Source of the DNA: Thermoproteota archaeon
GTDB lineage: Archaea; Korarchaeota; JAOZGF01; JAOZFZ01
DNA length: 62,419 bases
Direction of reading: 5' to 3'
Assembly (NCBI GenBank): GCA_027492035.1
Contig: JAOZFT010000008.1
Span: 1-62,419, forward strand
Both the position numbers and the translations under genes were made by a program. Below the pieces are notes generated by a model, which was not told where the DNA came from, did no database searches, and was given only the letters and a program-made list of their open reading frames with translations. Shown here one piece after another: positions 20,320 through 40,070 of this stretch; positions within the stretch are counted from its first letter, which is position 1, and each line of letters opens with the position of its first letter.

Positions 20320-21822
20320 GTGATGGCGCCGAAGGTGGATAAAATGAAAGAAGAATCGGAAAGCGAACTTGAAACCACTGTAGGAACATCTGAGGCTATT
20401 CAATCCCTTAAAAAATTAACGGAGAACTTCTTTGTAAGAAAAATTCTGCGAAGTTTAACTTCTTACTGTGAAAGGGACAAAGCTAACCGTTTAGAGGTCG
20501 CTCTTGAACTTTACACAGGTGTTAGAAAGGATGCTTGCTTCAAATGCAAAACAGCCGAAAAACTTCTTAAACCTGTGATTGAAAAATCAGCTAAAACTTT
20601 CGGTGTAACTCCTGAAGGTTTGAAAGAGAAATTCAAAGAAGCTTACTGGAGACGTGGATTAGTTAATGTTATTAAAGGAATTAGTTTCTTCGGTGTACAA
20701 AGACCTTTTGTCCCTGGAGCTCCCTTCCAAGTAGTCTGGAACATAACTAAAGCATGTAACTTAAGGTGTAAACATTGTTATGAGAAAGCAGGGAAACCTG
20801 CATCTGACGAATTAAACACTGAAGAAGCAATCAAGGGAATTGATATTTTGGCTGATGCAGGGGTAGTCATTCTAGCATTTTCAGGGGGTGAACCCACAGT
20901 CAGACCTGATATTTTGAAACTTGTAAGGCATGCTTCAGAAAGGGAAATTTATGTTGCAATGGCTACAAACGGAACTCTGCTTTCAAAAAAGAGAGTTAAT
21001 GAACTAAAAGAAGCAGGTTTACAGTTTGTGCAAATAAGTCTCGACGGAAGCACATCTGAAACCCATGACAGTTTCAGAGGAACCCTTGGAACCTTTGAAA
21101 AAACAGTTCAAGGAATAAAAAACTGTGTAGAGCAGGGATTATTTGTTGAAATAGCCACTACAGTTACCAAACACAACCTTGCAGAAGTTCCAAGTTTAAT
21201 AGAATTAGCTGAGAAATTGGGGGTAAACTGGTTCATGCATTACAACTTTGTTCCTGTAGGTAGAGGAAAAGAAATAGTAGCACTTGATTTATCCCCTGAA
21301 GAAAGAGAGCAACTGTTAAAAACTTTATGGGAAGAAATGAAGAAAAGGAAAATAGAGGTGCTTTCAACAGCTCCCCAGTTTTCAATGGTTGCCCTAATGA
21401 TGGAAGGGGCAGACAGTTCAGAGTTAGTTATGCCAACCCATTTCTACAACCCTCACCTAGGAGGACAACTGAAAAATTTAGCTGAGTTTATAGGGGGATG
21501 TGGTGCAGGCAGGTTTTATATTTCAATAGAACCAAACGGGGACATGTACCCCTGTGTTTTCTTCCCCCACGAACAAGAAGTAAAAATTGGGAACTTGTTG
21601 AAAGACGACTTTGAAGATCTGTGGAGGAACTCTCCAATACTTAAGACATTAAGAAATAAAGACATACTTTATGAGAACTGTGGATCCTGCGTGTACAGAT
21701 ATGTTTGTGGAGGATGTAGAGCTAGGGCATACAATTACTTCCATGACCTAAAAGCACCTGATCCAGGTTGTACATTAAATAAGGAGCACTACAGGAGATT
21801 AGTTACGCAAATAAATGCTTAA
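20320..21822 (+). CDS. gms: Radical SAM/SPASM enzyme, probable GMGT (H-shaped tetraether) synthase Gms-like
   Basis: CNLRCKHC, FSGGEP, SPASM CGAG..ISIEPNG..YPC...CGSC....CGGCRARA...DPGC; about 130-aa N-terminal extension with C..CxxC. Gms call rests on architecture plus operon context with a grs-like gene. Confidence 0.65.
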   Translation: MMAPKVDKMKEESESELETTVGTSEAIQSLKKLTENFFVRKILRSLTSYCERDKANRLEVALELYTGVRKDACFKCKTAEKLLKPVIEKSAKTFGVTPEGLKEKFKEAYWRRGLVNVIKGISFFGVQRPFVPGAPFQVVWNITKACNLRCKHCYEKAGKPASDELNTEEAIKGIDILADAGVVILAFSGGEPTVRPDILKLVRHASEREIYVAMATNGTLLSKKRVNELKEAGLQFVQISLDGSTSETHDSFRGTLGTFEKTVQGIKNCVEQGLFVEIATTVTKHNLAEVPSLIELAEKLGVNWFMHYNFVPVGRGKEIVALDLSPEEREQLLKTLWEEMKKRKIEVLSTAPQFSMVALMMEGADSSELVMPTHFYNPHLGGQLKNLAEFIGGCGAGRFYISIEPNGDMYPCVFFPHEQEVKIGNLLKDDFEDLWRNSPILKTLRNKDILYENCGSCVYRYVCGGCRARAYNYFHDLKAPDPGCTLNKEHYRRLVTQINA

Positions 21823-21876
21823 AAACGAGGAAACCCTTTCTCTTCCATTAAAAAAGAGGAGGAAGATGAATGAGAG

Positions 21877-23286
21877 ATGAAGATATTATTTATTGTTCCT
21901 AACTCAACATATGCCTTAAGAAACGTTTTAAATGTGACAGGTCCTCCCCTAGGTATAGGGTACTTAGCTTCTTATGTTAGAAGCGAAAACAGTTTTAAAC
22001 CATATATCTTAGACGCATTAACTCTCAATTTTAGAGTAAAGGACGTTTTGAAAGAAGTGGAGAAAATTAACCCTGACGTGGTAGGCTTAAGCATTAATTT
22101 CACCCCCTCAATATATGACGGTTATGAATTAGCTGAAGCAATAAAGGAATTCAATCCAGGAACAACTGTAGTAGCAGGGGGTTTACATGTCACCTTTACC
22201 CCCACGGAAACATTAAACTCTTCAAAAGCAATTGATGTAGTGGTTAGGGGAGAGGGTGAAGAAACACTCCTTGAACTTTTAAAGAAACTGAAACAGAACG
22301 AGCCATTAAACAGTGTTGAAGGAATATCTTATAGGGATGGGAATCAAGTAAAGAACAACCCAAACAGACCATTAATAAAAAACCTTGACACTTTACCTTT
22401 TCCAGCTTACGATTTAATGCCTATGGAAAAGTACAGAATGGGTAAAACAAGGTTCAGCACGATAATTACAAGTAGGGGATGCCCCTTTAAATGCATTTTT
22501 TGTTCATCCTCAAGGCTTTACGGCAGCACATGGAGGGTCAGAAGCCCTGAAAACGTCGTTAAAGAACTTGAAATGTTAAATAGGGAGTATAAAATTAATG
22601 AAGTGGAGTTTATAGATGACAATTTCACTTTAAACCCGAAAAGAGCAATTAAAATAGCTGAATTAATAAAAGAGAAAGCTTTGAGTATTTCATGGTCATG
22701 TTCATCAAGGGTAGACACTATTGTGAGGTTCCCTGAAATCCTTAAAAAAATTAAAGAGGCAGGATGCCATACAATCTATGTAGGGGTAGAATCTGGAGTT
22801 CAAAGAATCCTCAACATAGCAAATAAAGGAACAACTGTTAAACAAATTGAAAAAGCTTTCAAATTTATTAGAGAAGCAGGTTTAAAAGTTGTAGGCAGTT
22901 TCATGATCGGTTTCCCTACAGAAAGGGTAGAAGATGTTAAGAAAACAATAAATTTCGCAAAAAAACTTAGACCTGACATTGCACAGTTTTCAATTGTCAC
23001 CCCTTACCCAGGGACTCCCTTGTTTGATAAAGTAAGGGCTGAAAAAAAAATTTTAACATTAGACTGGAGAAAATATGATGTGTTAAACCCTGTAATAAAA
23101 CTAGATGAAATAACACCTGAAGCCTTAACCAACTTACTAAAACAAGCTTACATAAGTTTTTACGGTAGATTTTCATTCTTGGTTGAACAAATAAAGAATA
23201 AAAATTTCTTTCTTTTGAAAAAGGGGATTGGAGCTTTCTTCCAGTATTTACGAAACAAGATCTTGAAGAAAAACATGTTGTTTTAG
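21877..23286 (+). CDS. gmm: Cobalamin-dependent (class B) radical SAM methyltransferase, probable GMGT methylase Gmm-like
   Basis: B12-binding domain (PPLGIGYLAS, GGLHVTF, VVRGEGE), SRGCPFKCIFC, FIDDNF, GVESG, TPYPGT. Family is certain; the Gmm assignment is contextual. Confidence 0.55.
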   Translation: MKILFIVPNSTYALRNVLNVTGPPLGIGYLASYVRSENSFKPYILDALTLNFRVKDVLKEVEKINPDVVGLSINFTPSIYDGYELAEAIKEFNPGTTVVAGGLHVTFTPTETLNSSKAIDVVVRGEGEETLLELLKKLKQNEPLNSVEGISYRDGNQVKNNPNRPLIKNLDTLPFPAYDLMPMEKYRMGKTRFSTIITSRGCPFKCIFCSSSRLYGSTWRVRSPENVVKELEMLNREYKINEVEFIDDNFTLNPKRAIKIAELIKEKALSISWSCSSRVDTIVRFPEILKKIKEAGCHTIYVGVESGVQRILNIANKGTTVKQIEKAFKFIREAGLKVVGSFMIGFPTERVEDVKKTINFAKKLRPDIAQFSIVTPYPGTPLFDKVRAEKKILTLDWRKYDVLNPVIKLDEITPEALTNLLKQAYISFYGRFSFLVEQIKNKNFFLLKKGIGAFFQYLRNKILKKNMLF

Positions 23287-23306
23287 TCTTGGGGGCAGGA
23301 AAAGAA

Positions 23307-24857
23307 ATGAAAGGATATGAAATAGTTTTAACAGGAGACAGGACAATGATGAGCGATTACGGAGGAGGACTTTTTCTAGGTTTCATTTCAACAGGGCCCT
23401 CAAAAGGGTTCATTCCCACACCCTTACTTTTCAAGTTTGTTTTTAAACCAGTACCTGTAATTGACGGCGGAAGAGCTTTACTTGCACCCCATGGTTTAAG
23501 AAGGATAGAGGCTGCTTTACTTGAGAACGGTTTTAGTGAAGATGAAGTAGTTATTTCACCCCCTGAAGCTTTACATGAAACAATAGGGTCCTCCACCAAA
23601 ATAATAGGTATCCACTCTCACGACCACTTAGGAAGGGGACCAGCCACCACCACAATGTCGGGAGAAACAGGCATAATACATGAAGAACCTTTATCAGCTT
23701 ACGGTTTCAGGAAACTTGTCACAAGCAAAATAATACAGAAGACAAGGAAAAAAGGCGCTGTAGTTGTTGCTGGAGGCCCAGGAGCTTGGCAATTCAGAAA
23801 GGAAGACATGGGAAGACTGGGTGTAGACCTTGTCGTTTGCGGTGAAGGGGAAAAATACGTACCGAAAATTTTCAAGGAAATAATTGAAGGGGAAAAATTT
23901 GAGAAACCGGCAATACTTCATGTTCCAGTTGAAGAAATACCTAAACCTGAAGAAATACCTGCTTTGAAAGGTGCAACAATAGGTGGGTTAATTGAAGTGT
24001 CAAGAGGATGTGGTAGAGGATGTAGTTTCTGTAGAGCCAACTTAAGACCCTTAAGGCATAGACCACTTGAGGAAATAAAGAAAGATGTTGAGATAAATGT
24101 GAAGTATGGACAGAGAGGAGTATGTCTCCATTCAGAAGACATTTTTAGGTATGGTTCAACCCCCTTCCAAGTATCACATAAAAAAGTTGTTAAGCTATTT
24201 AAAACAGTTGAAGCAGTTGAAGGAGCGAAAGTAAATAGCTTCAGCCACGCAAACCTTTCATCGATAGCAGCCTATCCAGAAACAGTTGAAGCAGTAGCTG
24301 AAATAATAGGAACAAGCAAAGAGAAATGGATAGGATATGAAACAGGGATTGAAACAGGAAGTTCACGGTTGATAGAGAAACACATGAAACATAAACCATA
24401 CCCCTTCAAACCATCAGAATGGAAAGAAGTTGTGGAGGAAGCATTTGCAGTAAGCATAGAGAACGGCTTAATTCCAGCAGCAACGTTAATAGTTAATTTG
24501 CCAGGAGAAGAAGAAAAGGATGTAGTTGAAACAGTTGAGTTAATAGAGAACCTGAAAAACTACAAAAGCCTAATAGTTCCTCTGCTTTACGTAAACCCAT
24601 TTAACCCGTTAGATAAAAGAATAAAATTTGTTGAGGACTCAAAACCTTACCACTGGGAACTATACAAAGTTATATGGGAACACAATATGAAATGGGTTTC
24701 TGCTTTAGTTAAGGAATACACAAGAGAAAACAAGTTGTCTTCAAAGATTTTCCTAAAGTTTCTGATACTAGCCATAGAGAAATTCTTTAACAGAAAAGCA
24801 ACTGAATTCATAGAGGAAAGAATGCTTCAACAAAAAAAGGCATGTATTCCAAGGTAA
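23307..24857 (+). CDS. grs: GDGT ring synthase Grs-like B12-binding radical SAM enzyme
   Basis: IVLTGDRTMMSDY, GRA..APHGLRRIEA.L, HD.LG.GP, GGPGAWQ, EVSRGCGRGCSFC, HSEDIFRYG, GIETGS: the Grs family pattern as I recall it. ATG 23307 (track start 23289). Confidence 0.8.
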   Translation: MKGYEIVLTGDRTMMSDYGGGLFLGFISTGPSKGFIPTPLLFKFVFKPVPVIDGGRALLAPHGLRRIEAALLENGFSEDEVVISPPEALHETIGSSTKIIGIHSHDHLGRGPATTTMSGETGIIHEEPLSAYGFRKLVTSKIIQKTRKKGAVVVAGGPGAWQFRKEDMGRLGVDLVVCGEGEKYVPKIFKEIIEGEKFEKPAILHVPVEEIPKPEEIPALKGATIGGLIEVSRGCGRGCSFCRANLRPLRHRPLEEIKKDVEINVKYGQRGVCLHSEDIFRYGSTPFQVSHKKVVKLFKTVEAVEGAKVNSFSHANLSSIAAYPETVEAVAEIIGTSKEKWIGYETGIETGSSRLIEKHMKHKPYPFKPSEWKEVVEEAFAVSIENGLIPAATLIVNLPGEEEKDVVETVELIENLKNYKSLIVPLLYVNPFNPLDKRIKFVEDSKPYHWELYKVIWEHNMKWVSALVKEYTRENKLSSKIFLKFLILAIEKFFNRKATEFIEERMLQQKKACIPR

Positions 24858-27895: not shown

Positions 27896-28417
27896 TTATT
27901 TTATTATTTCTAATTTAGTTATTCTTAGGTAACCTTTATCTTCCAGGTCCAGAATTCTGTCAAGAATTGTTGACATCGGGGTTTCTAAAGCATTGGAAGC
28001 TTCTATTAAGTTTATTTCGTTCTTATCGCTTAAGTAGGCAGATATGAGTAGATCGATTTCAGAGGGATTTTCTCCTTCCTCCTCCTTATTTGTGTACTCA
28101 TAATTAATTTTTAAATGAGGTGCAATTGCAAGGAATTCTGATTCTGAGTGGTAATAAAATAAGGCTATCAATAGACTTGAAATAAGCCCCAAGATTAAAA
28201 GGGCGTAAATTTGCCATGTAAATGCGTAATTAAGCATGGAAAGAGAGATTATTAGCGTTAAAATGAAAGTGAAAGTCCCTATTTCGAAACTTGAAATAAA
28301 GCATCTTTTTCTTCTCTTGTTATAAATTTCTTTAATTTGTTTGTTAACCATGGTTAGGTACTTCCTTCGGAGGATTTCCTCCATTTTAATGCATCTCTTT
28401 AGGTAGAGGGGCAACAA
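27896..28417 (-). CDS. Two-TM membrane protein with C-terminal winged-helix-like segment
   Basis: Two hydrophobic helices, then INLIEASNALETPMSTILDRILDLEDKGYLRI. Probable start at MEEIL (28384). Confidence 0.65.
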   Translation of the reverse strand: MLPLYLKRCIKMEEILRRKYLTMVNKQIKEIYNKRRKRCFISSFEIGTFTFILTLIISLSMLNYAFTWQIYALLILGLISSLLIALFYYHSESEFLAIAPHLKINYEYTNKEEEGENPSEIDLLISAYLSDKNEINLIEASNALETPMSTILDRILDLEDKGYLRITKLEIIK

Positions 28418-28693: not shown

Positions 28694-31600
28694 TCATTTA
28701 TTTCCTGTAAGATATTGTTGATAAGTTTGAGTTTTTAACCCCATTGCCTCAGCTATTTTCGTCACAGGAGAATTAACTAAAATAACTTGTTTAGCTTTCA
28801 CCTTTGAAGCTGCAATTAAGGCGCTGAGCTGCTCCGGGTTAAACCCTTCTCTTCGAAGGTAGTAAAGTAAAGCTGCATCTACACCTGAGAAGGGTATAAC
28901 TTGCACTAAACCGCCTGAAACCAGTTCATCTAGAACTGTTTTGAGGCTGCGATCCTTTAAAGCCTCAATAAGAGTGTACTCTGAAATAACTAAATTTGAA
29001 GTTTGTTCCAGGAAAGAAGCGAGAAGCTGCATGACATGAAGATTTTTTAGGGATTGATAATCTATCACTGTAAATTTCTTCCTCCTTTTCAAGGCAAAAA
29101 GGGATAATGGAGCTATTAAAGGAAAAACTGCAGCGAACGATGCATAAACTACAGGTTTTATAGCGGGTTGATGCACTGCAGCTGAAGCCAAGCCAATAGG
29201 TAAAGTGGGGGAGGGGGAAGGAATAGGAGAGGTAATGGGGGAAGGAGTGGGAGAGGGGGAAGGAGTAGGAGAAAAAGGAGGGGGGGTATAGGGAGGAGGT
29301 GGGGTAGCTGGGGAAGGTGAAGGGATAGTGGGGGTAGGAGTTTTTGGAGGCGGCGAGGTGAGAGGAGGTGGAGGGACAGGTGGAGTTGTTTTTATACAGG
29401 TGATTTGAGGTTCCTTTACGACTCCACTTAAGAAATAAGTGTTTTTAATTACTTCATGTAAAGATACAGATGTTCCATGAATTAAGGGTTGAACAGTGTA
29501 GTTTACAAGTGCGTAATAAATTGGGGTGTAATTGGTTGGGGTTATGTCGGAGTAAGTGTTAGAGTACCATTTTTCTCCAGGTTTAATTAACACGTTTGGG
29601 TTCTCTTGAAAAATTAACCTGCCTGAAATATTTTTTTCCCTTACGGAAACTTCACTTATATTGTATGAAATTTCTTCAGCTGTGTTTATTACTGAAACGT
29701 TAACTTCCCACCCATTACTTATTTTCTTTTTAGTTAAGCATATGTCAGCGGGACCTACTGCCTTAACGGATTTAATTCTTTCTCCAAGTAAGGTTTCATT
29801 GTTTCTGTAACTCAAATAAGCTGCAGGTAAGGTTGCGTTGAAGGAGGGGGTGAGAATTAGGTTTAAAGTTAATGATTCACTACTTCCCTTCTTTGACGAA
29901 GCCATACTCCAATTAATTTGGTGAGTAGTGTAAGAAAGAACCCCTTTCGTGACAGTTGCTGAAGCAATTTTCACCCAGGAGGGGAACTCTTTGAAGTAAC
30001 TAACATTTTCAATGTCTTGGAAGGTATTAATTTCCACGTTTAATTGACCTTTCCTCTCTTCTCCACAAATTGATGGAGAGAAAGAAAGGAATTCATAAAC
30101 ATTTAGAGGAACTACTGCATATTTAGGGTCGATTTGATATTTCCACCTAACATAATCGCCTGGCCTCAAATTATTAATGTGGAGAGGAGGAGGTACTGGC
30201 GTGTTTGAGGGGGAGGGGTAGTCGAGGTAAAAAGTTACGCCGGTATTGTTAATTTTTACCCATATGTCTGAAAGCGTGTCATTCGTCGGGTTCGAAACTG
30301 TTAAGAAACCGAAAAGTTTGGAGATGTGGAAGGAACCGTCTGGGTAAAAGGTTGCATCCAAATATTCTCTGATTTCCAAGTGGAGGTAGTTGTTTGGGGA
30401 TCCTTTAACTGAAGGAATAAACATGAAAGAAAGTGTGGCAGGCAAAATAAAAAACAAGACTTTATATAACACTTTACATTTCCCTTTTCTTCTCCTTAAT
30501 TGCTTTAAAGAAATTAAAAATAGGGAAAGAGAAAGTGGGAAAATGGTTTCAGTTAACTGCATAAATTTCCTTTCTTCATGTGTCATTTCTTTAACTTCTT
30601 CTTCAATTTTAGGGTCTAAACCTACTTCATAAGCCTTTAAGGTGAAGTATTGTGAGGGACAGGTTGAGGCAGTTAATGTGTAGTTTATGACTTTGAAATT
30701 GTTGGGGTAGGTGTTACCTAAAAAGGAAATGTTCCAGTAATAAATTGTTCCGTCTGTAGTGGATAGGCTTCCGTTATAGTTAGGTTGAGGGTTAACGACA
30801 AGGAAGCCTGAAGGCGCAAAATCGTAAACTACAGCGTTGTAAAGGGGGGTGCCAGCGAAGTTAGTTATGTTCAATGAAACATTGTAACTGCAAGGGTTCA
30901 CTCCTTCCTTCACTGACTTCTTAACACTTAAATTGTAGAGTATTTGTTGAATTCGGTAATTTAAACTGAACTCCGAAGTTCCGTTCCCGGGCAAAGTAGC
31001 TGTGGAAGTCACCCAATCCCCAACTTCAACTCCTTTACCTGTAACGTTTATTTCACAGTTGAAAGAGTTATTGGAGGGGTAAGTTGTACAGTTCCCTAAA
31101 TAAATTAATCCTTCACCGTGGTAAGGAGAAGCGTCGTTTGTGACGCCTGGGTTTGGATTATTTGAACCATTAAATGTGGAGAGATAGAATTCAATGGTTG
31201 AGTTAGCGAAAACAGATTGCGAGGGATAAAGACCAACAAATCCTTTCACATACAGAAAGTTTTTACTTAAATAAATAGATGAAATGTTTGGAAAGTCCAT
31301 GCCGTTGTTAGGTTGACTTGTATTTAGTAACCCGTCATTGTTTGTGACACCGTCTCCTTTAACGCTTCCAGATGAATCGTCACATAAATCTATACCGAGG
31401 CCTGTGTTATTGTAGAAGGCGTTACGGGTTATTGTTACATTGAAGCTGTTCCCGTAACTTGAAATTCTCCAATTAGAAACTATTAAACCAACTAGGTTGT
31501 CATGTAAAACATTGTTCTCCACTCTTACATTTCTGCAGCCCCTGTCAACTAAAACTCCGTAACCTGAACTGTTAACGACGGTGTTGTTTAAAAAGTAAAC

Positions 31601-34600
31601 ATTTCTTAAATTTCCCAGTAATTCAACAGCCCCACCGTCTAAACGGGAAGTGTCAGCTTCACAGTCCCTAATAAGGTTGTACTCTACAGTTACATTGTTT
31701 CCTTGTAAAAGGTCAATAGCTTCACTTGTTTTACTTGAACCCATGTTAGCTTCAAATAATTCACAATACTTAACTTCTAAATTGTTTCCTCCCCCTCTCA
31801 CTAAACCCCAGGAGGAGTAGCCAATATAGGACCCTGTAACTTTTATGTTTTGGTTGTTGACATAAATTATTTCACGTGAAGCACTTGGTTGCCCTGGATA
31901 ACTACCATCTGCCCTAACACCTAGTAAACATCCTTTAATCTGAGACCCTGCTCCATTTAAATAAATTAAACTTGTTACTCCAGTGAAACCGTAAACTGAA
32001 ACGTTTACAAGTAAAAAGTTAGCTCCATCCACTCTTAAACCATAGGAACCTGAAACGTCTATGTTGATTTCTATTTCAGGTTTACTGTAAAAGGGAAGTT
32101 TTTCCTCATCCCCTGTATTTGGTTCAACGTCCCCTCCTATACCTACGGTTCCTCCACTGCCAATTACTCCTTTATTGGTATCCACCCAGTTAAACAATGA
32201 ATTAAACACTGTACCATTAACCACTGTCCCTGAATCTTCAACGTAAGGGAGCCCCCCAACAGTTGAGTTAAGATTTATTCTCCACCATTTATGCTGGATA
32301 TCCTGGACAACGTTAGGGTTCACCATCATCACAAACCAGCTTCTGTCAGGGCCGGTTATAGCGTTAGAATTGATTATGAATTGTCTAAAAGACCCTTGAA
32401 CTGTCCTTGGCTCTGTTGGAGAATCATCAGCATCTCTAGTGTTCACTATCACGTCAAAACTAAAACCAAAATCCACATTTGGTATATAGCATTTAGTGGC
32501 GTTAATAAAAGATACATGCTCATAATGGTTGAAAGATGCGTTTACACTGGAGGAGTTCCAGTAATCACTTACTTCAGGGTCAACCCCGCCAAATTCTGAG
32601 CCGCAATTCAATGTTGAACCTGTGTAATTGCATCCGTAGGTTTGTTCAGCCCAAACATAGGTTTGATCATAGCCTGAATTGTAGCCGTTATTTGCAGGGG
32701 CAGGTTTTACATCTCTCGAATTCACAGTCACAAAGTAGACTCCAGTTTTTTTAACAAAAACAATGTAGTAACCTGTTGAATTAGTGGTTGCATTATAAAC
32801 ATTTACATCTCCGCCGTCAAGTGTTCCGTCTCCATCATCTACGAAAACCCTTACTTCAACACCAGATTTACCCTCGTCACCGGGTTCAAAAGGGTCTCCC
32901 CTGGAGTCAGAGTCCTCAAAAACCCTGCCCTCAATCTGGCAAAGGACAGTGAAGTTAGTTTCATCTATGTTGAAATACGTTGTGTAGTTTTCAGGGTCCG
33001 TAGGTCTCCCAGGGATATGGATTAAACCGTTCTTTGAAGGATCAATTGTAGAGGTTGACAAATCTTTAGCGTAAACTTTAACCTCCCATTCTCCGCATGG
33101 ATCAGAGGGTTTTATTACGTAAACGTTACTGTTTGTGAATACGCCATCTCCTGCTGTCACGTCTCCATGCGTGCCGTCATCATATAGAGTCGCAGTAGTT
33201 TTAATATTTCCTTCGGAATCAATAACTTCAGCTATTATACTTCTAGTAGGAGCTGCATCAACCGCAGCTGTAACATTAACAACATCTCCATAAGTGTAGT
33301 TCCCTTTTGGAGAGGTTAGGTTAACACCAAACCCCTCAGCCATAGCAGCTTGAAGAGTTGCGGTAACTGGGCACCAAACAACGTCGTCAATATATACCCA
33401 AGTTTTATAGTAAGGGTCATAATATGTGTGAAGGTTAAAGTAAACCCTTAAGGTTTGGCCTGCATAAGGAGATAAACTGTAGAGATAAGTTAACCAGCCT
33501 GAATCAGCGTAATAACCATAACTCCAACCTGGGTTTGGGTTGTATCCTGAAATCAATGTAGCCAACACCGTGTTGCTTGTATCTCTTAATGTCACTGTTA
33601 AGTAGTCATAGTATGCTGAGTCCCAACTTTCAACGCGGTAAGAGAAATATAGGTTTCCACCATCCGAAGGAACAGTAAATTGGTAGTATGCCCAAGTGTT
33701 TTCACCATTAGGTGTCAAATCTTCATCATTGTCTCTGTAACCCATCAAGAGAGAGTAATTTCCAGTGTAGGGGGCTCCGCTGTCTATTATTGGTGAAGGG
33801 GAACCATAATTGTCGTATACAGTATATGGCCCTCTTGGACTAGCTTCTATTTGTGAATTAATGTTAGGTGGGTTTCTGCCATAAACCCAATAAGAAAGAC
33901 TTCCTGATTCCAGACCTGTATTTAAAGTGTCAAGGCTTGTTTTCGCTCCATTTTCCAGTATGTCAAAGTAAATGTAATAAGTTGTTGCTGAAGGTAGGTT
34001 TTTATCTAAAATGAACCTTACAGTTCCTACTCCGTTACTTACGGGTATGTATTCTTGGGAAGGCACCAAGTTGCCTTCATCATTAATTACCCTTACCGAA
34101 TTCGGGTCAAAAGTCCCTGTTATGTTAAGTCTACTAAGCAAATTACTAAAGTTAACATAAACTGTTATCACGTGGTTTTGCTGCGTTGAAGGTATTGACA
34201 CAGGCACTCTGTAGTGCCAGTCTTCACCGTTGTTAGGACCATCAGGGTCCCACCATTCCGGGACATTGTAGAGGATGTAATAGTACCTGTTTGGGTCGTC
34301 ATAAAAAATTACTTCATTCCCTTCCTGAACCCAAATTTTTATTTCTTCTACTACGTTACCAACTTTTTTAAAAACCTTGAACGCCTGTGCACCCCTCGGT
34401 AGGTAAGCTTTTAACCTAACCCATTTATTCCTTGTTTTGTTTTCAAGAATCACTGTGACTTTCTTGTTAAGAAGGTCTATTACTTGGTGAACCTTAATTT
34501 CTCTCTTCCCCATTATTAATTTTTCAATTAGTAGATTGCAGTTGCTTGGAACAAAGATTGATCCGTTAAATATTTTTATCCTTGCTCTCCCAATTAGGAG

Positions 34601-36706
34601 GTGCGTTCCGTAACTTTTTAGGAGGGTGAGGTTTAGGATGCCTTGTGTAGTGTTTAAAAGTGTAACTTGCCATATTGCATTAATGCCTGAAGCGTTAAGT
34701 TTATTTATGAGCTTAAGTGAAGCATGTTTTTCTACTTTCAGTTTTTGAATTTTCCTAGGTTTTGAGACAACACCACCAATAATAGATGTTATTACGCCAT
34801 TTTCTTTCTTATCTAAGTCCCCATATTTCCCATCTGTTAAATTCACTTTGATCGATGAACTATTTATTTTAAAGAACCTTACAATGCTTAAATTCCTTTT
34901 TTTAGGGTCGTAAACTTTAACTCCGGAAATGTTTAATGGGAAATTTATTAGTAAAGAGACATTACCCCCCCTCTTCATTTTTACAATTAACTTAAATAAG
35001 CCTAAAGGGAACTCCTCCTTTCCCCAAGTTAAATTTGTTAATGAGTAGTTTAAGTGTTTAAGGGAGAGGATTGTTCCCTCCAAGGCTTTAAATTGGACAA
35101 GGTGCCCTTTAATACGTGGTTTTGTGGTTTTGGGTTTAAGTTCTAGAACCTCCAGCGAAGTTACTCTTGAGACCGTACAACCTTTTCTACTTACATTTAC
35201 TAGGATTAGGTAGCTTCCAGGTTTGAGTTTGCCAAGTTTTAAAGAAAAACTGCCGTTAGTAAGAAATTTTCCTCTCTTAATTATTAAATTTTCCTCCTTT
35301 TCTTTAACAAAATAGGTTACGTCGAGTTTCAGGGGTTTATTTGTTGAAACAAACCCCTTAAGAGTAACTGATTTATTCTTCGGAACACTTAATTTCTTTG
35401 GTAAAAAGAAAGTGAAGTTACACGGCGTAGTTGGGGGACGAGACTTGACAATCAACGTAGTTTTGAGTGAAGATTTTAGAGAGAACCAGCTTGAATTAAT
35501 TAATAAAGTGTAGTTTCCAGTTGTTAAATTTATTTTAAAAACAGCTTCCCCGTTTAAGGTTTCCCCCTTTAACTTATATTCCTTATTTTTGTTGTAGATT
35601 AAAACTGAAACGTTTGCTTTATCTACTAAACCTGAAGAAACTCTTTGAACAATTACTTTTAAAGTTTCTTCACCTGTGAACATTTTTTCCGGTAAATGGA
35701 CGTAAGTTTTTAATATATCCACAGTAAATTGTACGGAGCAATTTTTTCTCTTCTTCTCACTTAAAGCTTCAGCGTAAACACGGTATTTCCCAAGAGAAAC
35801 TGAACTGTTTAAGTTATAAAGGGAGTAATACGTTAGGTTTGTTAATTTAATGGGTTTTACGTTTATTTCTCTTCCATCAGGGGTTTTAATTTTAATAAGT
35901 AGTTTGTAAACTTCTTTTGTGGAGTTAATTAATAGTTTAACTGTTTCCCCAGGTGAATACGTTAGTTTATTTGTTTTTATTGTGAGTTTAAATGGTTTGG
36001 GAGGTTGCTTTGTTTGGTTAAGTGACGCATTAATACTTGCGGAAAAACTTCCCTTTATTCCCCTTTCATCAATTACTTCCCCGGTGAGGTGGTAATAATT
36101 GTCAGTTAAATTATTTAATAACAAGAAGGTTTCTCCATTCTCTATTTCCAGACTAAAGGATTTCTTTTGAGATTTGGAAGTTAAGGTTAGGTTTATTTTT
36201 CCGTTAACTTTTTCCTGGGTTAAATAGTCTTCAGCAAAGAATTTAACAAGCCAGGCAATAACGTTTTTCCGTGAAACTTTGACCTTGGCTTTTAGGGAAG
36301 TTATTGTGAAGGAAGTTGAAGTTAACTCCTCTTCCCCTATTTTTAAAGTTGCAGCATATCTTCCTAAAACTATATTTGATGAGAAATTTGTAACTGCCTC
36401 AAAAAGTGTTTCATTTATTTCTTTCAAGCATAAAATAAACGATTTGTTCAGCGGAGAAACTATTTCAATGTAACTCTCGTTTAAGGTTTTATTTTCCATG
36501 TTTAAAAGATAAGTTAGGTTTCCTGAAACGAATACCCTTATTTCGTCGAAGGGGTTGTAGAAACGTTTTTCAGGGTAAATTTCCAAGTTAATTATGGGTT
36601 GAGAGTAACTTAAATTGTTAATTAAAGAAATGAGAAGTATGGAGACAAGGAGAGAATGAACAATTCTTTTCTGTATTTTTTTGAGTTTAGAAACGTGAAT
36701 AAACAA
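28694..36706 (-). CDS. Giant (2670 aa) multidomain cell-surface protein, apparent polyprotein
   Basis: Signal peptide; MG2/Ig-like repeats; choice-of-anchor-U-like segment (LTDG..GD.D...NGVI); WW..WHYR module; LYDDGTHGD..AGDGVFT; SdrD-B-like GRVFED; parallel beta-helix; DUF11-like domain; TM-basic-TM; paralog of the 742-aa protein; Pro-rich stalk; TM; PIN-like tail. Confidence 0.85.
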   Translation of the reverse strand: MFIHVSKLKKIQKRIVHSLLVSILLISLINNLSYSQPIINLEIYPEKRFYNPFDEIRVFVSGNLTYLLNMENKTLNESYIEIVSPLNKSFILCLKEINETLFEAVTNFSSNIVLGRYAATLKIGEEELTSTSFTITSLKAKVKVSRKNVIAWLVKFFAEDYLTQEKVNGKINLTLTSKSQKKSFSLEIENGETFLLLNNLTDNYYHLTGEVIDERGIKGSFSASINASLNQTKQPPKPFKLTIKTNKLTYSPGETVKLLINSTKEVYKLLIKIKTPDGREINVKPIKLTNLTYYSLYNLNSSVSLGKYRVYAEALSEKKRKNCSVQFTVDILKTYVHLPEKMFTGEETLKVIVQRVSSGLVDKANVSVLIYNKNKEYKLKGETLNGEAVFKINLTTGNYTLLINSSWFSLKSSLKTTLIVKSRPPTTPCNFTFFLPKKLSVPKNKSVTLKGFVSTNKPLKLDVTYFVKEKEENLIIKRGKFLTNGSFSLKLGKLKPGSYLILVNVSRKGCTVSRVTSLEVLELKPKTTKPRIKGHLVQFKALEGTILSLKHLNYSLTNLTWGKEEFPLGLFKLIVKMKRGGNVSLLINFPLNISGVKVYDPKKRNLSIVRFFKINSSSIKVNLTDGKYGDLDKKENGVITSIIGGVVSKPRKIQKLKVEKHASLKLINKLNASGINAIWQVTLLNTTQGILNLTLLKSYGTHLLIGRARIKIFNGSIFVPSNCNLLIEKLIMGKREIKVHQVIDLLNKKVTVILENKTRNKWVRLKAYLPRGAQAFKVFKKVGNVVEEIKIWVQEGNEVIFYDDPNRYYYILYNVPEWWDPDGPNNGEDWHYRVPVSIPSTQQNHVITVYVNFSNLLSRLNITGTFDPNSVRVINDEGNLVPSQEYIPVSNGVGTVRFILDKNLPSATTYYIYFDILENGAKTSLDTLNTGLESGSLSYWVYGRNPPNINSQIEASPRGPYTVYDNYGSPSPIIDSGAPYTGNYSLLMGYRDNDEDLTPNGENTWAYYQFTVPSDGGNLYFSYRVESWDSAYYDYLTVTLRDTSNTVLATLISGYNPNPGWSYGYYADSGWLTYLYSLSPYAGQTLRVYFNLHTYYDPYYKTWVYIDDVVWCPVTATLQAAMAEGFGVNLTSPKGNYTYGDVVNVTAAVDAAPTRSIIAEVIDSEGNIKTTATLYDDGTHGDVTAGDGVFTNSNVYVIKPSDPCGEWEVKVYAKDLSTSTIDPSKNGLIHIPGRPTDPENYTTYFNIDETNFTVLCQIEGRVFEDSDSRGDPFEPGDEGKSGVEVRVFVDDGDGTLDGGDVNVYNATTNSTGYYIVFVKKTGVYFVTVNSRDVKPAPANNGYNSGYDQTYVWAEQTYGCNYTGSTLNCGSEFGGVDPEVSDYWNSSSVNASFNHYEHVSFINATKCYIPNVDFGFSFDVIVNTRDADDSPTEPRTVQGSFRQFIINSNAITGPDRSWFVMMVNPNVVQDIQHKWWRINLNSTVGGLPYVEDSGTVVNGTVFNSLFNWVDTNKGVIGSGGTVGIGGDVEPNTGDEEKLPFYSKPEIEINIDVSGSYGLRVDGANFLLVNVSVYGFTGVTSLIYLNGAGSQIKGCLLGVRADGSYPGQPSASREIIYVNNQNIKVTGSYIGYSSWGLVRGGGNNLEVKYCELFEANMGSSKTSEAIDLLQGNNVTVEYNLIRDCEADTSRLDGGAVELLGNLRNVYFLNNTVVNSSGYGVLVDRGCRNVRVENNVLHDNLVGLIVSNWRISSYGNSFNVTITRNAFYNNTGLGIDLCDDSSGSVKGDGVTNNDGLLNTSQPNNGMDFPNISSIYLSKNFLYVKGFVGLYPSQSVFANSTIEFYLSTFNGSNNPNPGVTNDASPYHGEGLIYLGNCTTYPSNNSFNCEINVTGKGVEVGDWVTSTATLPGNGTSEFSLNYRIQQILYNLSVKKSVKEGVNPCSYNVSLNITNFAGTPLYNAVVYDFAPSGFLVVNPQPNYNGSLSTTDGTIYYWNISFLGNTYPNNFKVINYTLTASTCPSQYFTLKAYEVGLDPKIEEEVKEMTHEERKFMQLTETIFPLSLSLFLISLKQLRRRKGKCKVLYKVLFFILPATLSFMFIPSVKGSPNNYLHLEIREYLDATFYPDGSFHISKLFGFLTVSNPTNDTLSDIWVKINNTGVTFYLDYPSPSNTPVPPPLHINNLRPGDYVRWKYQIDPKYAVVPLNVYEFLSFSPSICGEERKGQLNVEINTFQDIENVSYFKEFPSWVKIASATVTKGVLSYTTHQINWSMASSKKGSSESLTLNLILTPSFNATLPAAYLSYRNNETLLGERIKSVKAVGPADICLTKKKISNGWEVNVSVINTAEEISYNISEVSVREKNISGRLIFQENPNVLIKPGEKWYSNTYSDITPTNYTPIYYALVNYTVQPLIHGTSVSLHEVIKNTYFLSGVVKEPQITCIKTTPPVPPPPLTSPPPKTPTPTIPSPSPATPPPPYTPPPFSPTPSPSPTPSPITSPIPSPSPTLPIGLASAAVHQPAIKPVVYASFAAVFPLIAPLSLFALKRRKKFTVIDYQSLKNLHVMQLLASFLEQTSNLVISEYTLIEALKDRSLKTVLDELVSGGLVQVIPFSGVDAALLYYLRREGFNPEQLSALIAASKVKAKQVILVNSPVTKIAEAMGLKTQTYQQYLTGNK
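29205..29385 (-). repeat. Low-complexity Pro/Ser/Thr-rich stalk-coding tract
   Basis: G/A-rich + strand tract encoding TTPPVPPPPLTSPPPKTPTPTIPSPSPATPPPPYTPPPFSPTPSPSPTPSP... Confidence 0.9.
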
Positions 36707-36764
36707 CTAAACCTCCTTTTTTACTTATCCATTGCTTTTTAGAAAATTGTCTCTTTTTATTTAT

Positions 36765-37520
36765 TTATAGTTTTTTTAAGATTTTTCTGTAAATAAGTAG
36801 AGTTATTCCAGTTAGGAGTATTGTGCACCAAAAAAGGATATAGCCTTGTAAAGGCAAGAGTGGGAAGGGGAATTTACTGAATTCACAGTTCACTTTAATT
36901 CTTTCACCAGGTTCAAAATTGGTTATTTTTAAAGTGCCACCGTGAACTAATTGCTTGGAGCTGTAAGTGAAATGGTACCCCCTCGGTAGGTGAAGAATAA
37001 TTTCCCCATTTTTTATTTCTGAAGAAAAGGGCCCTATTTCAAAATTTAACTCGTTAAAAATTAATCCTTCAGCCACTATCCCCCTAACCATCAACGTTAC
37101 TTGGAAGGGGTATTCTCCGTTAGGTTCTATTGGGTCCCAAAGGGAATACCTTACCGCAACATTTCCTTTGCTACGTAAAACAATTGCTTCCTTTTCCTGT
37201 TTTGTTTCTGGGTTTTCAGCTGAAACCTTTTTAACTGTTAAACTGCTTCCCTTGATGAAGGGACTTAATGTGAAACCTGTTTCTTTACATGAAATATTTA
37301 TTATGCCATAACCTGGAACCACGTGCACGTTTGCAGTGTTTTTGTAGACACCGTAAAAAATGATTTGGGCTGAATTGTTTTCGAAAAAGAAAATATTGAT
37401 GCTTAATTTTTCGATTTTTAAGGGGTTAAGTTCATTTTGTGAAAAACTAGTCTGGGGAATTAGAAGCAATAAAAAAAGTAGGGTGGAGAAGGTGGCAACC
37501 CCTATTTTTCCCCTTTTCAC
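36765..37520 (-). CDS. Secreted beta-rich protein with C-terminal TM anchor (accessory gene of surface locus)
   Basis: Signal peptide, single beta-sandwich-like body, C-terminal TM plus RKILKKL; lies between the two large surface genes. Confidence 0.8.
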   Translation of the reverse strand: MKRGKIGVATFSTLLFLLLLIPQTSFSQNELNPLKIEKLSINIFFFENNSAQIIFYGVYKNTANVHVVPGYGIINISCKETGFTLSPFIKGSSLTVKKVSAENPETKQEKEAIVLRSKGNVAVRYSLWDPIEPNGEYPFQVTLMVRGIVAEGLIFNELNFEIGPFSSEIKNGEIILHLPRGYHFTYSSKQLVHGGTLKITNFEPGERIKVNCEFSKFPFPLLPLQGYILFWCTILLTGITLLIYRKILKKL

Positions 37521-37537
37521 TTACCTCTTCCTCTTCC

Positions 37538-39745
37538 TTATTCAGTTAAAGATTCCTTGCCACCCTTTTTATTTTTCAGTTTCAGTGGAAATAGGGCGGA
37601 GACAAAGACAGCTGCACCTAAGGTAGCAAGTAAATATTCGAAAGTCACTGTCCCTGATGACAGGCTTGTTTCAGGCTGGAAAATCGCTAAAGCATTTAAT
37701 GTATGCCTGGGATCCACCCCAACAATGAAAAGGTCAAGCGCTTTATAGACTCCTGTGCCGCTTACATTGTAGTAAATTATTACAGGATTTGTAACATTTA
37801 TTCCAAGATTTGTATAGAACCCCTTTGCTGAAACAACAACTTTACCTCCCTCGGTTGAGTTCAGGGAGTCCTGAATAAAGGTTACTGTGAAATTGGTTTC
37901 TGAAGATAAGCCGCTATTTACTGTGAAGTTTGCTCCTTCGTTGTAATTTGTGCCATTAATATTTACCGCTGAGTTGCTTACAGGGTATACAGTCCATGTT
38001 CTTTGGGTTCCGTCAGTTAAAGTCACGTTAACATTTTCTTGGTTAGATGACCCTGTTCCATTGAACCATTCAGCGAAACCATGTTGAGGAGCAGGCATTG
38101 GGTAAATATCCCAAACGTAGCCTCCACTGTAACCTGTAGGGGTTGTTTTTCTGGAGTAGTCAGGTGGACTGTTCGCGTCAGCATCGTTAGCTAACATGCT
38201 TAAGGGTTTAAAGATCATTCCACCTTCCGTAGCTGGAGGATCAGGGTTGAAATTGGTCGGAACCAAATCGTAAACTGAAACGTATGGAGATGTCCACTGC
38301 CCTAAATTATGTACTTCAATTAATATGTTGTATTTATTTGGTGTGGAGGGGTCAGATCTAACTTCCTTGACAGCCTTGATTAAATACCCTTTAACAACCC
38401 AAACTTTTTCAATTACTAAGTAGGTTGAGTTACCGTCAGGTTTTTCACTATTCCTTGTATAGTTGTAAACCCACCAGCCTTTCTGTTGATCTTTAGCTAT
38501 CCTGAATTTATCAATAACCCAAATTTTAGGTACTCCATTATAGGTAAAGTTAAGGCCTCCATCTGAGTAGTTTCCTAAAGGTTCAACAGTTGCTATTGGG
38601 TCTCCCGTAACAGAATGGCTAGAACCGCTTACTAATGTAGAGTCAGGTGTGTCCCCTTGGGTTGCCCAAGTTGTCATGTTGTAAAGTTCATACTTGAAAG
38701 TTGCGCTTGTACTGTAGAAAATATTTGTTTCATTCCATGTATTAGTTGCATAAGTGCCTTGTTCCTTTCTTGCCTCAATATCCGCTTGCCCAATTGAGAA
38801 AATGTACCCTAAAGTTGTGTTTGTGAATGTTTTTTGGGCTGTGAAGTAGACATAAACTCTGCCTATTTCTATTTTGGTAGTTTGTCCCCCTACTTCGCTT
38901 AGGTCAGGGGTTCCTTGCACCTGAAAGTTCCTTATTGTACCACTTGCACCGCTGTTTAAGGTGAACCAGTTGTCAGGCCAGTCACCGTTGCTTGTCCAGT
39001 TTAATCTTTTATTGTCTGATGTTAAACCTGTGTTTCCAACTGTAGCTGTTCCTGCACTTGTGAATTGGGGGTTATTGGCAACGGCGTTGCTCCAGCCATC
39101 GTTGCTTGTCCCGTCAGCTGGTAGGATTTTTCTCACCCTGAAATTAACAGTGTACCATAAATTGTTGGTGATGGTTAAGTTTATTGTTAAAGTTTGACTT
39201 TGCCCATCCACTATTTTGTTGGGTGAAACTTTTTCACTCACAGTTATAGGGGGGCATTGGGGTTGGTTTCCACCTGTCCAGGTGACAGTGTACCAAAGAA
39301 CAACTCGGTCTCCACTTCTTAATTCAGTTACATGGACCCATTTATCGGCTTGGTTGTTAGGGAATTTACTTTTTATCTCTGAAGGAACATTTCCAGCAAG
39401 AATTTCACTTACGTCTGCATATGTTGGTTTTTCGTAAGGTATTGTCCAGGTGTATGTGTAAGTTGAGTTTTCATTTATTGGGATCCATATGTCTGAAACT
39501 GTTTCCCCTGTGTTGCTGTTCCAAATTGTTATGTTCCCTGAGACGTTCCATGCTCTGCAGTGAGTATTTACTCCATCTGTCTCAATTGTAGCATTAAGGT
39601 ACTCTGTAACATTCACAAGTAGGGGTGCATCTGGTAATCCATAAGCTTTAAAGCTTAAAGGAGCCGTTGAGGGAGTGTAGAAGAGAAATACTAGAAACAA
39701 TGTTGAAACAAGCATCACTTTAATTTTTGTATTTGATGCTCCCAT
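37538..39745 (-). CDS. Secreted, N-glycosylation-sequon-rich surface protein with DUF11-like domain and C-terminal TM (MJ1393/AF2028-like from memory)
   Basis: Signal peptide, many N-x-S/T sequons, IKAVKEV...VHNLG...VYDLVP...FIVGVDP, C-terminal TM plus basic tail. ATG 39745 follows GAGGTG (track start 39766). Confidence 0.85.
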   Translation of the reverse strand: MGASNTKIKVMLVSTLFLVFLFYTPSTAPLSFKAYGLPDAPLLVNVTEYLNATIETDGVNTHCRAWNVSGNITIWNSNTGETVSDIWIPINENSTYTYTWTIPYEKPTYADVSEILAGNVPSEIKSKFPNNQADKWVHVTELRSGDRVVLWYTVTWTGGNQPQCPPITVSEKVSPNKIVDGQSQTLTINLTITNNLWYTVNFRVRKILPADGTSNDGWSNAVANNPQFTSAGTATVGNTGLTSDNKRLNWTSNGDWPDNWFTLNSGASGTIRNFQVQGTPDLSEVGGQTTKIEIGRVYVYFTAQKTFTNTTLGYIFSIGQADIEARKEQGTYATNTWNETNIFYSTSATFKYELYNMTTWATQGDTPDSTLVSGSSHSVTGDPIATVEPLGNYSDGGLNFTYNGVPKIWVIDKFRIAKDQQKGWWVYNYTRNSEKPDGNSTYLVIEKVWVVKGYLIKAVKEVRSDPSTPNKYNILIEVHNLGQWTSPYVSVYDLVPTNFNPDPPATEGGMIFKPLSMLANDADANSPPDYSRKTTPTGYSGGYVWDIYPMPAPQHGFAEWFNGTGSSNQENVNVTLTDGTQRTWTVYPVSNSAVNINGTNYNEGANFTVNSGLSSETNFTVTFIQDSLNSTEGGKVVVSAKGFYTNLGINVTNPVIIYYNVSGTGVYKALDLFIVGVDPRHTLNALAIFQPETSLSSGTVTFEYLLATLGAAVFVSALFPLKLKNKKGGKESLTE

Positions 39746-40070
39746 AAAAAAAGCACCTCTCAACATGTTTTTGTTTAAACGTTTTTCAATTTTTCAAAGA
39801 AAAGATTTTGGAAAAAGAATTCTGGAAACTATTTAAATTTTTTCCTTTAATTAGCTCTGTCGACGGACTAAAAAAAGGACTTTAAGTACTTATTTTATGT
39901 ATTTTCTGTCTTCACATAACTTTTGTTACCTCTAAAGGGAACAGACACAGTTCTCGTTTTTTAAGCGGATTTCATAATGCAAAAAAATTTAAAAAGAATT
40001 TACATATTTTCAAAAATGTTTTATTAAATATATTCATTTTCAAATTTTTGTCTTGAAGGAGTGGAAGAAA

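Follow-up and report, generated by a model that had tools for sequence, protein, structure and literature searches.

We analyzed a stretch of 62,419 nucleotides from a Thermoproteota archaeon of the korarchaeal lineage (contig JAOZFT010000008.1 of GenBank assembly GCA_027492035.1), which we refer to as the window. It makes up contig C24 of a genome that we call G000 (1.87 Mb, 93% complete). It contains a four-gene operon, A-B-giant::X-D, that encodes uncharacterized membrane-anchored cell-surface proteins (A, B, X, and D are names that we coined for this analysis). Judging from its sequence, the third gene, which encodes 2,670 amino acids, is a fusion of two ancestral genes: one for a giant adhesin-like protein (residues 1–2032, or the giant part) and one for a membrane protein, X (residues ~2077–2670, or the module). 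With modest confidence, we propose that the operon encodes a conserved membrane-anchored complex that keeps a large and variable glycosylated protein, similar to adhesins, attached to the cell.

A first-pass annotation of the DNA letters had pointed out three tightly spaced, co-oriented open reading frames (ORFs) on the minus strand, of 742, 251, and 2,670 amino acids. The coordinates bear this out: the ORFs lie at 37538–39766 (A), 36765–37520 (B), and 28694–36706 (giant::X), with gaps of 17 nt between A and B and 58 nt between B and the giant ORF. Shine-Dalgarno-like sequences (GAGG for the second ORF and GGAGGT for the third) lie 5 nt ahead of the starts. The cluster's fourth gene, D (27896–28417, minus strand), is 276 nt downstream of the giant ORF. 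The features of the operon are:

37538–39766, minus strand: gene A, a secreted and C-terminally anchored surface protein with 22 N-X-S/T sequons (from the ORF, hydropathy, and homologs)
38474–39631, minus strand: residues 46–431 of A, a predicted double beta-sandwich resembling mu-homology domains
37706–38470, minus strand: residues 433–687 of A, a second beta-sandwich region (all-beta in the model) with a DUF11-like sequence signature and a VGVDP end
37709–37723, minus strand: the VGVDP of A (V682–P686), 25 residues ahead of the transmembrane (TM) helix
37583–37633, minus strand: the C-terminal TM anchor of A (residues 712–728, from hydropathy), followed by a Lys-rich tail
36765–37520, minus strand: gene B, the conserved partner of A, with 251 amino acids, a signal peptide, an ectodomain of ~200 amino acids, and a C-terminal TM helix
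30611–36706, minus strand: the giant part (residues 1–2032), with a signal peptide, Ig/MG2-like repeats, choice-of-anchor U and X domains, a beta-helix, and a VGLDP-ended terminal domain
31508–31975, minus strand: a right-handed beta-helix, residues 1578–1733 (Pfam PF13229, E = 1e-8, above the cut-off)
30611–30625, minus strand: the VGLDP of the giant part (V2028–P2032), which is where the giants of other archaea end
30401–30610, minus strand: the junction insert (residues 2033–2102), seen in this genome alone among those compared
29405–30400, minus strand: the X ectodomain (ORF residues 2103–2434), with a predicted fold resembling mu-homology domains and paralogous to residues 27–426 of A
29132–29344, minus strand: a Pro/Thr/Ser-rich stalk, ~residues 2455–2525 (from the sequence; disordered in the model, with pLDDT < 50)
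29090–29140, minus strand: the TM helix of X, residues 2523–2539 (from hydropathy and the model)
28697–29077, minus strand: a cytoplasmic domain with a predicted PIN fold (residues 2544–2670), in which the catalytic acidic residues are not conserved
27896–28417, minus strand: gene D, with 173 amino acids (the start is uncertain), two TM segments, and a C-terminal winged-helix-like domain (from weak Pfam matches, and BLASTP to relatives)

The first-pass annotation gave each of the three large proteins a signal peptide and a C-terminal TM helix. By hydropathy, this holds for A (a signal-peptide-like segment at 15–31 and a TM helix at 712–728) and for B (6–22 and 227–243), and in both proteins the TM helix is followed by basic residues. 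The N-terminus of the giant ORF resembles a signal peptide by eye, but it scores under the hydropathy threshold. The last TM helix of the giant ORF (2523–2539) is present as described, but the ~130 cytoplasmic residues after it had been overlooked, as had two more hydrophobic segments, at 2055–2067 and 2083–2099. Potential N-glycosylation sites are dense in A (30 sequons per 1,000 residues) and in the giant ORF (82 sequons in total, or 31 per 1,000), versus 8 per 1,000 in B and none in D. For comparison, most large ORFs in the genome that look cytoplasmic have 0–8 per 1,000.

The annotation had also noticed, from an alignment by eye, that the last extracellular part of the giant ORF resembles the N-terminal part of A. 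This similarity is significant. With BLASTP, residues 20–258 of A align to residues 2077–2267 of the giant ORF at 23% identity (E = 1e-5), and when the module was searched against relatives, the same cross-match to A appeared in 7 genomes. Profile-profile comparison with hhalign aligns A 27–426 to module 20–332 (302 columns, probability 98.9%, E = 2.8e-17). Also, a hidden Markov model (HMM) built from 9 korarchaeal modules matches 19 full-length distant members of the A family (E = 1e-14 to 4.6e-6). One lysine is invariant across both families (K334 of A, which corresponds to K250 of X). By these comparisons, the X ectodomain and the N-terminal ~400 amino acids of A are true paralogs.

A and the giant part share another feature, a VGxDP motif. 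In A, the residues G683, D685, and P686 are invariant across 27 diverse family members, and in 12/12 further distant members we found GxDP by eye, always 25–35 residues before the TM helix. The VGxDP region of A aligns to the final 28 columns of the terminal domain in the giants (hhalign probability 79%, E = 1.6e-5); a BLASTP match between A 433–687 and giant residues 1927–1998 is weak (E = 0.13). On its own, the tetrapeptide G[VIL]DP turns up 27 times among the ORFs of this genome, so it is the position of the motif that is informative, not its mere presence. The tetrapeptide is missing from the two other DUF11-bearing ORFs that we tested in the genome (C9:352034–354433 and C9:366540–368615).

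The motif had been described as the end of a DUF11-like domain in both proteins. The motif is indeed there in both, but the DUF11 label is only partly backed. A has no match to Pfam's DUF11 (PF01345) at E ≤ 0.1, and the window's module reaches just 15.6 bits (E = 0.02) against a cut-off of 24.6. Seven of the 14 members of the module family pass the gathering score, via an additional inserted domain not present in this genome. The nearest neighbors by ESM features are DUF11 clusters, at a low score (0.82). Whatever the second region of A is called, A joins in one anchored chain the domain resembling mu-homology domains and a VGxDP-ended domain, which elsewhere are split between X and the giant.

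The split state is seen at loci from distant archaea. We used eight of the more distant A representatives as queries, which gave 25 loci, and ORFs in the fetched loci were called by a simple first-start rule. All 10 giant ORFs that we chose beside A or B at these loci stop at [VIL]G[VIL]DP plus 0–2 residues and have no TM helix. (An eleventh large ORF, from locus L038, is an anchored paralog of A.) The separate X proteins have 470–680 amino acids, with a signal peptide and an ectodomain that starts with E[FY]R[DE]VxFYP[DN]G, then a linker rich in Pro and Thr, a single TM helix, and ~100 amino acids of cytoplasmic tail, and they are collinear with residues ~2077–2670 of the window's ORF. The order A-B-giant-X is found at four loci (L035, L036, L039, and L040), and in the first three of these the stop of the giant and the start of X overlap by 4 nt; in the Archaeoglobi loci, X comes after B instead. 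Sequence comparison shows that separate giant and X genes are the state outside the Korarchaeia. The giant varies greatly in length across loci, from 978 to 3,287 amino acids.

In the Korarchaeia, G[VIL]DP lies just ahead of the first module-aligned residue (by BLASTP) in 10/10 giants. The gap is 1–8 residues in nine relatives and is filled in G000 by an insert of ~70 amino acids. This junction insert is missing from 9/9 aligned korarchaeal relatives, whose giants are otherwise collinear with the window's ORF. It comprises a charged linker, a 13-residue hydrophobic stretch (2055–2067), the sequence KQLRRRKGK, and a signal-peptide-like segment (2083–2099) that ends with SVKG/S. It looks like a relic of a C-terminal anchor and of the signal peptide of the downstream gene, joined in frame. 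If so, the window may preserve an intermediate state of the fusion. In the predicted topology, the insert would form a hairpin that leaves both halves of the fused protein outside the cell. The exact 36-base junction sequence had no match in metagenome contigs, and no close relatives of this region turned up at the protein level either. One relative (G016, contig C20) has a free-standing X of 858 amino acids with its own signal peptide, and the giant part is missing.

We examined the distribution of the cluster in 41 genomes (G000 and 40 relatives). A is present in 21/41, B in 21/41, and the module in 27/41 (at E ≤ 0.01, weak matches included). Nineteen homologs of A have 43–99% identity (E = 0 to 2.6e-145); one of them is named Candidatus Methanodesulfokora washburnensis by its source. 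Relatives with the cluster all belong to one family-level group, f3 (20/34 genomes have A). We did not find A, B, or the module in the groups f2, f4, and f5, or in G001, which is the sole other genome from the window's own family and is 94% complete. Genomes from another family do hold A, B, and the module, with A at 45–53% identity. The lack of matches in G001 combined with presence in another family points to loss or lateral transfer.

The first-pass annotation had named conserved co-occurrence of the three genes elsewhere as something to check, and they do occur together. Every one of the 19 relatives with both A and B has them adjacent; a single contig carries A, B, and the module in 13 relatives, and in six others a contig end intervenes. 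The order A-B-giant is found in 10/10 of the fetched loci, and a D-like ORF comes next in 9 of these (7 of the 9 are detectable by BLASTP at E ≤ 0.01). In one relative, the A gene is broken into two frames (G019:C5:83987–85937).

Beyond the relatives, a profile of A searched against 1.84 billion representative sequences found 106 proteins at E ≤ 1e-3. All of the sequences that we inspected have the same architecture: a signal peptide, an N-terminal double sandwich, a second beta region, GxDP, and a TM helix. The 25 distant loci are from Archaeoglobaceae (including metagenome-assembled genomes of Archaeoglobus), Hydrothermarchaeota, Pyrohabitans, Methanothermococcus, Methanocaldococcus, Methanoculleus, and Methanogenium. 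B is beside A in 15/25 of these loci. An X-like gene is present in 12/25, and seven of these lie outside the set used to build the profile, which contained five X proteins. A D-like gene with two TM segments follows X in 6 of the distant loci. We also found B in 19/75 and 13/30 genomes from the classes of one Archaeoglobus genome and one Methanocaldococcus genome. The cluster is therefore widespread, across several heat-loving archaeal groups, but accessory. In each lineage with the cluster, B accompanies A, as a single-copy and anchored protein.

The first-pass annotation had compared these proteins to MJ1393–MJ1396 of Methanocaldococcus and AF2028 of Archaeoglobus. Genomes of both genera do contain homologous clusters, with homologs of A, B, and the giant together; there, X either has a gene apart from the giant or was not found. 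In Methanocaldococcus sp. 28A and 16A, the cluster comes directly after a gene for an HMGL-like/LeuA_dimer synthase; this is presumably cimA, which we take to be MJ1392, and that would suit a cluster from MJ1393 onwards. The broader claim, that this is a conserved and undescribed archaeal surface system, is supported for a cluster of surface-protein genes. We found no description of the cluster in the literature that our searches covered (bioRxiv supplements and subscription journals were outside their reach, and the Greek letter for "mu" is unsearchable), and the passages of PMC5898192 and PMC4460559 that were consulted do not mention it. As far as these searches reach, the cluster is undescribed. 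Homologs of A carry the precomputed labels PF27409 and PF27408, so Pfam may already cover these domains, and we found no mention of either accession in the literature.

The proteins have few informative sequence matches, so predicted structures are the main clue to their folds. The AlphaFold model of A (from an alignment of 18 sequences) is all-beta with a mean pLDDT of 68.7, and the model of the module (from 14 sequences) has a mean pLDDT of 79.9, with the ectodomain above 90. Foldseek gave a probability of 1.0 and TMt of 0.55–0.65 for A and E = 4.5e-10 for the module. Both predicted models have the nested double beta-sandwich of the mu-homology domain, which in eukaryotes is found in the mu subunits of AP-1 to AP-4, in COPI delta, in Syp1/FCHo, and in SGIP1 (PF00928). 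In contrast to those cytosolic domains, the archaeal copies are extracellular behind a signal peptide, rich in sequons, TM-anchored, and without an N-terminal longin domain. Sequence identity is just 12–16%, and we do not imply common descent. Pfam's Adap_comp_sub (PF00928) does not match A or the window's module; among the 14 members of the module family, one has a match below the cut-off (E = 0.036). Profile searches against PDB sequences with our alignments A1, A4, and A5 gave nothing significant, and a word-indexed homolog search with the module at shorter lengths returned none.

The cytoplasmic tail of X has a PIN fold in the predicted model, as in VapC toxins, SSO1118, AF0591, and Nob1. 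Unlike in those proteins, the domain is membrane-tethered as the tail of a surface protein, and the four acidic catalytic residues are not conserved. In an alignment of the tail that is not mapped to structure, no column is invariant: the first Asp is present in 11/14 sequences, and the second acidic position is found in 7/9 Korarchaeia and 0/5 others. The tail is truncated in G015 and G008. Pfam's PIN family does not match it. The tail is probably non-catalytic. We regard the similarities to mu-homology and PIN domains as resemblances between predicted folds, not as demonstrated homology. In Methanoculleus-type loci (L039:10700–12202 and L040:15635–17167), the X-like protein has, by eye, a PKD-like segment (WHWDFGDG) past the TM helix and no PIN-like tail.

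B is less tractable. Across 19 aligned members, 10 residues are invariant, among them VPG and AEFS..LPLP..W ahead of the TM helix, and B is single-copy in all five genomes tested. Weak matches of B to Pfam's Ribophorin_I (2/19 members, best E = 0.0059) and DUF2207 (1/19, E = 0.048) do not reach the gathering score, and ESM-feature scores of 0.84–0.86 to Ribophorin I and DUF2207 are at the level of a lead only. A word-indexed search with B returned just its own 99% cluster, and NCBIfam has no match to A, B, or D. Complex prediction for A 46–705 with B 28–230, using both alignments, gave a score of 0.00 against a mark of 0.32, which counts neither way.

How might these proteins work together? 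We read the fusion of the giant and X as a Rosetta-stone signal of a physical partnership between them. In our proposal, the VGxDP-terminated end of the giant would dock on the ectodomain of X, and perhaps also on that of A. X would thus be the membrane dock for a giant protein that is unanchored in other archaea, and the korarchaeal fusion would be the tethered form of this pair. A and B would belong to this platform as additional subunits, beneath or inside a separately encoded S-layer, and the PIN-fold tail and D would make a cytoplasmic contact of unspecified kind. Of the parts that the first-pass annotation had assigned, the stalked membrane base is the best founded: the C-terminal module corresponds to a distinct ancestral protein with a stalk, a TM helix, and a cytoplasmic domain.

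Several observations weigh against this proposal. The evidence for docking consists of gene fusion and gene order. The joint could still give rise to two proteins, by signal-peptidase cleavage or from an internal start at GTG 30475, in which case the fusion is perhaps only formal; the docking model would be unchanged. The fold assignments depend on AlphaFold models from shallow alignments (18 and 14 rows), and the confidence for A is rather low. We did not find the cluster in G001, the closest relative sampled, which is 94% complete, so the cluster is dispensable and was perhaps transferred. Ten of the 25 distant loci have no match to B, and several Archaeoglobaceae A genes stand without B, although some loci are cut by contig ends. 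At two Methanocaldococcus loci we found no X gene within the fetched flank, so X would not be the sole dock there. Finally, a PIN-fold tail next to a membrane-bound winged-helix protein could equally mean signaling.

The first-pass annotation had instead proposed a filament or surface appendage, with A as the repeating subunit, the beta-helix part of the giant as a tip adhesin, X as the membrane base, and B as an assembly factor. Two observations fit a head-to-tail version of this idea: A contains both types of domain, of which the giant and X otherwise have one each, so each A could dock on the next, and A is single-copy and conserved while the giant is variable. Against it, every A-family member inspected keeps its own TM anchor 25–35 residues past VGxDP, so the subunit would need to be cut free. 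Dedicated assembly machinery was not found either. As the annotation had said, there is no pilin, ATPase, or sortase gene nearby: none of the 12 neighboring ORFs that we scanned looks like one, or like an usher (class III signal peptides were not formally sought), and the assembly ATPase and platform genes of type IV or archaeal pili are absent from these ORFs. Archaeosortase/exosortase (Exosortase_EpsH, PF09721) has no match in the 93%-complete genome, and the control, M. jannaschii, does match. We also considered archaeosortase-type sorting (PGF-CTERM or PEP-CTERM) and rejected it: PF09721 is missing, and GxDP does not abut the TM helix. None of our tests supported A as a repeating subunit, the beta-helix as a tip, or B as an assembly factor, and we consider a filament unlikely.

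A more specific version, which we also think has little chance of being right, has the A and X ectodomains as peptide- or strand-docking sockets for a VGxDP plug. A would chain head-to-tail from X to the giant at the tip; scission of the Asp-Pro bond would free A from its anchor, and the invariant lysine would perhaps lock the joints. If true, this would be a previously unknown way to assemble an archaeal surface stalk, without an ATPase or a sortase. There is a partial parallel in the self-processing clip-and-link module of FrpC and other RTX proteins, which sits after an Asp-Pro bond (PMC7078468 and PMC7846742). Like FrpC, the archaeal proteins are large and secreted and have a strictly conserved Asp-Pro at a set place, and there is an invariant lysine in the candidate partner domain. 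Unlike FrpC, 10/10 stand-alone giants end 0–2 residues past the Asp-Pro, and no processing module was detected.

Another alternative is an outside-in sensor, in which contact of the giant with a surface or another cell is relayed via the TM helix of X to the PIN domain, as an RNase or VapC-like effector, with D as a VapBC-style partner or regulator. The gene order is compatible with this, as D follows X in the Korarchaeia and D-like genes do so at 6 distant loci. D also has winged-helix matches (Pfam HTH_24 at E = 0.015 and HTH_39 at E = 0.058), but both are below Pfam's cut-off. The tail is a poor candidate for an effector, given its missing acidic residues, the lack of any invariant column, and its truncation in two relatives. 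In Archaeoglobi, the cytoplasmic part of D-like two-TM proteins (L029:14225–14767 and L025:1467–2015) resembles, by eye, the PIN-like tail of X and not a winged helix. The fourth gene of the cluster may not be a single family. Overall, we doubt that the operon is a sensor.

It is also improbable that A, perhaps with B, forms a lattice in the envelope (a second S-layer or sheath component) while the giant is just an unrelated neighboring adhesin. A is sequon-rich, all-beta, C-terminally anchored, and of typical size for an archaeal S-layer protein, and the operon resembles archaeal S_layer_N/S_layer_C proteins in being secreted, prone to N-glycosylation, and all-beta, with a membrane-anchored partner. 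(SlaA and SlaB of the Sulfolobales are a two-gene S-layer operon.) But S_layer_C (PF05124) has no Pfam match in A, B, or the giant. Instead, G000 has a canonical S_layer_C protein elsewhere (882 amino acids, G000:C9:349014–351662, Pfam E = 4.3e-24), which is the probable S-layer protein of this genome, and 5/5 cluster-bearing genomes tested encode one. The patchy distribution of B across classes and the failure to find the cluster in G001 also argue against a lattice, and the A–X paralogy and the VGxDP end common to A and the giant tie the genes together. We ruled out A as the S-layer protein from the separate S_layer_C protein and the patchy distribution of B; the 742-residue protein is probably not the S-layer. 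The S_layer_C gene belongs to a second surface-protein region of G000 (G000:C9:348900–368700, or L048), where it is followed by a gene for a 799-residue DUF11/CARDB protein and, further on, one for a 691-residue DUF11/TRAP_beta-like protein.

Least probable is that there is no complex, only independent, co-regulated surface proteins whose A/X similarity reflects an old duplication without functional coupling: clustering is common among surface-protein genes, but the gene order is held across at least four archaeal classes, a stop/start overlap and an actual gene fusion link the giant to X, and A shares its terminal motif with the giants.

Our preferred reading, a membrane-held adhesin, has an analog in bacteria. 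LapA, a giant adhesin built of repeats, has no lipid anchor itself and is held by a dedicated membrane protein with a cytoplasmic domain (the LapD/LapG system). The likeness to the archaeal operon would lie in the logic of retention: we detected no homology between components, and the envelope, the domains, and the secretion route (here, Sec signal peptides) all differ. How archaea retain very large adhesins without a wall polymer or an outer membrane is largely unknown, and the operon is a defined and widely conserved candidate system. Its cultured carriers include Methanocaldococcus, Methanothermococcus, and Archaeoglobus. The predicted mu-homology fold is surprising outside of eukaryotes and on the external side of the membrane. 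If confirmed by structures, it would bear on the origin of a eukaryotic trafficking domain, and this family would be the first prokaryotic home of the fold used in eukaryotic vesicle adaptors. A membrane-tethered tail is also an unusual context for the PIN fold.

Some distant members of the A family have additional N-terminal domains, namely Laminin_G_3 (P0030 and P0066) or a NosD beta-helix (P0040). By eye, part of another (P0120) resembles subtilisin and includes the motif GTSMATPH. It seems that differing heads are presented on the A scaffold.

The 12 ORFs that adjoin the operon and that we scanned are of metabolic or regulatory types: radical-SAM enzymes, an aldolase, a dehydrogenase, an aminotransferase, an FAD oxidase, a CCG/Fe-S protein, a DUF354 glycosyltransferase-like protein, and an ArsR-like protein. 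Neither Rfam families nor tRNA genes were detected in the window. Three successive radical-SAM genes lie at 20320–24857 on the plus strand; a SPASM domain accompanies one and a B12-binding domain another, and the remaining gene is plain. These look like a cofactor- or peptide-modification cluster that is separate from the surface operon.

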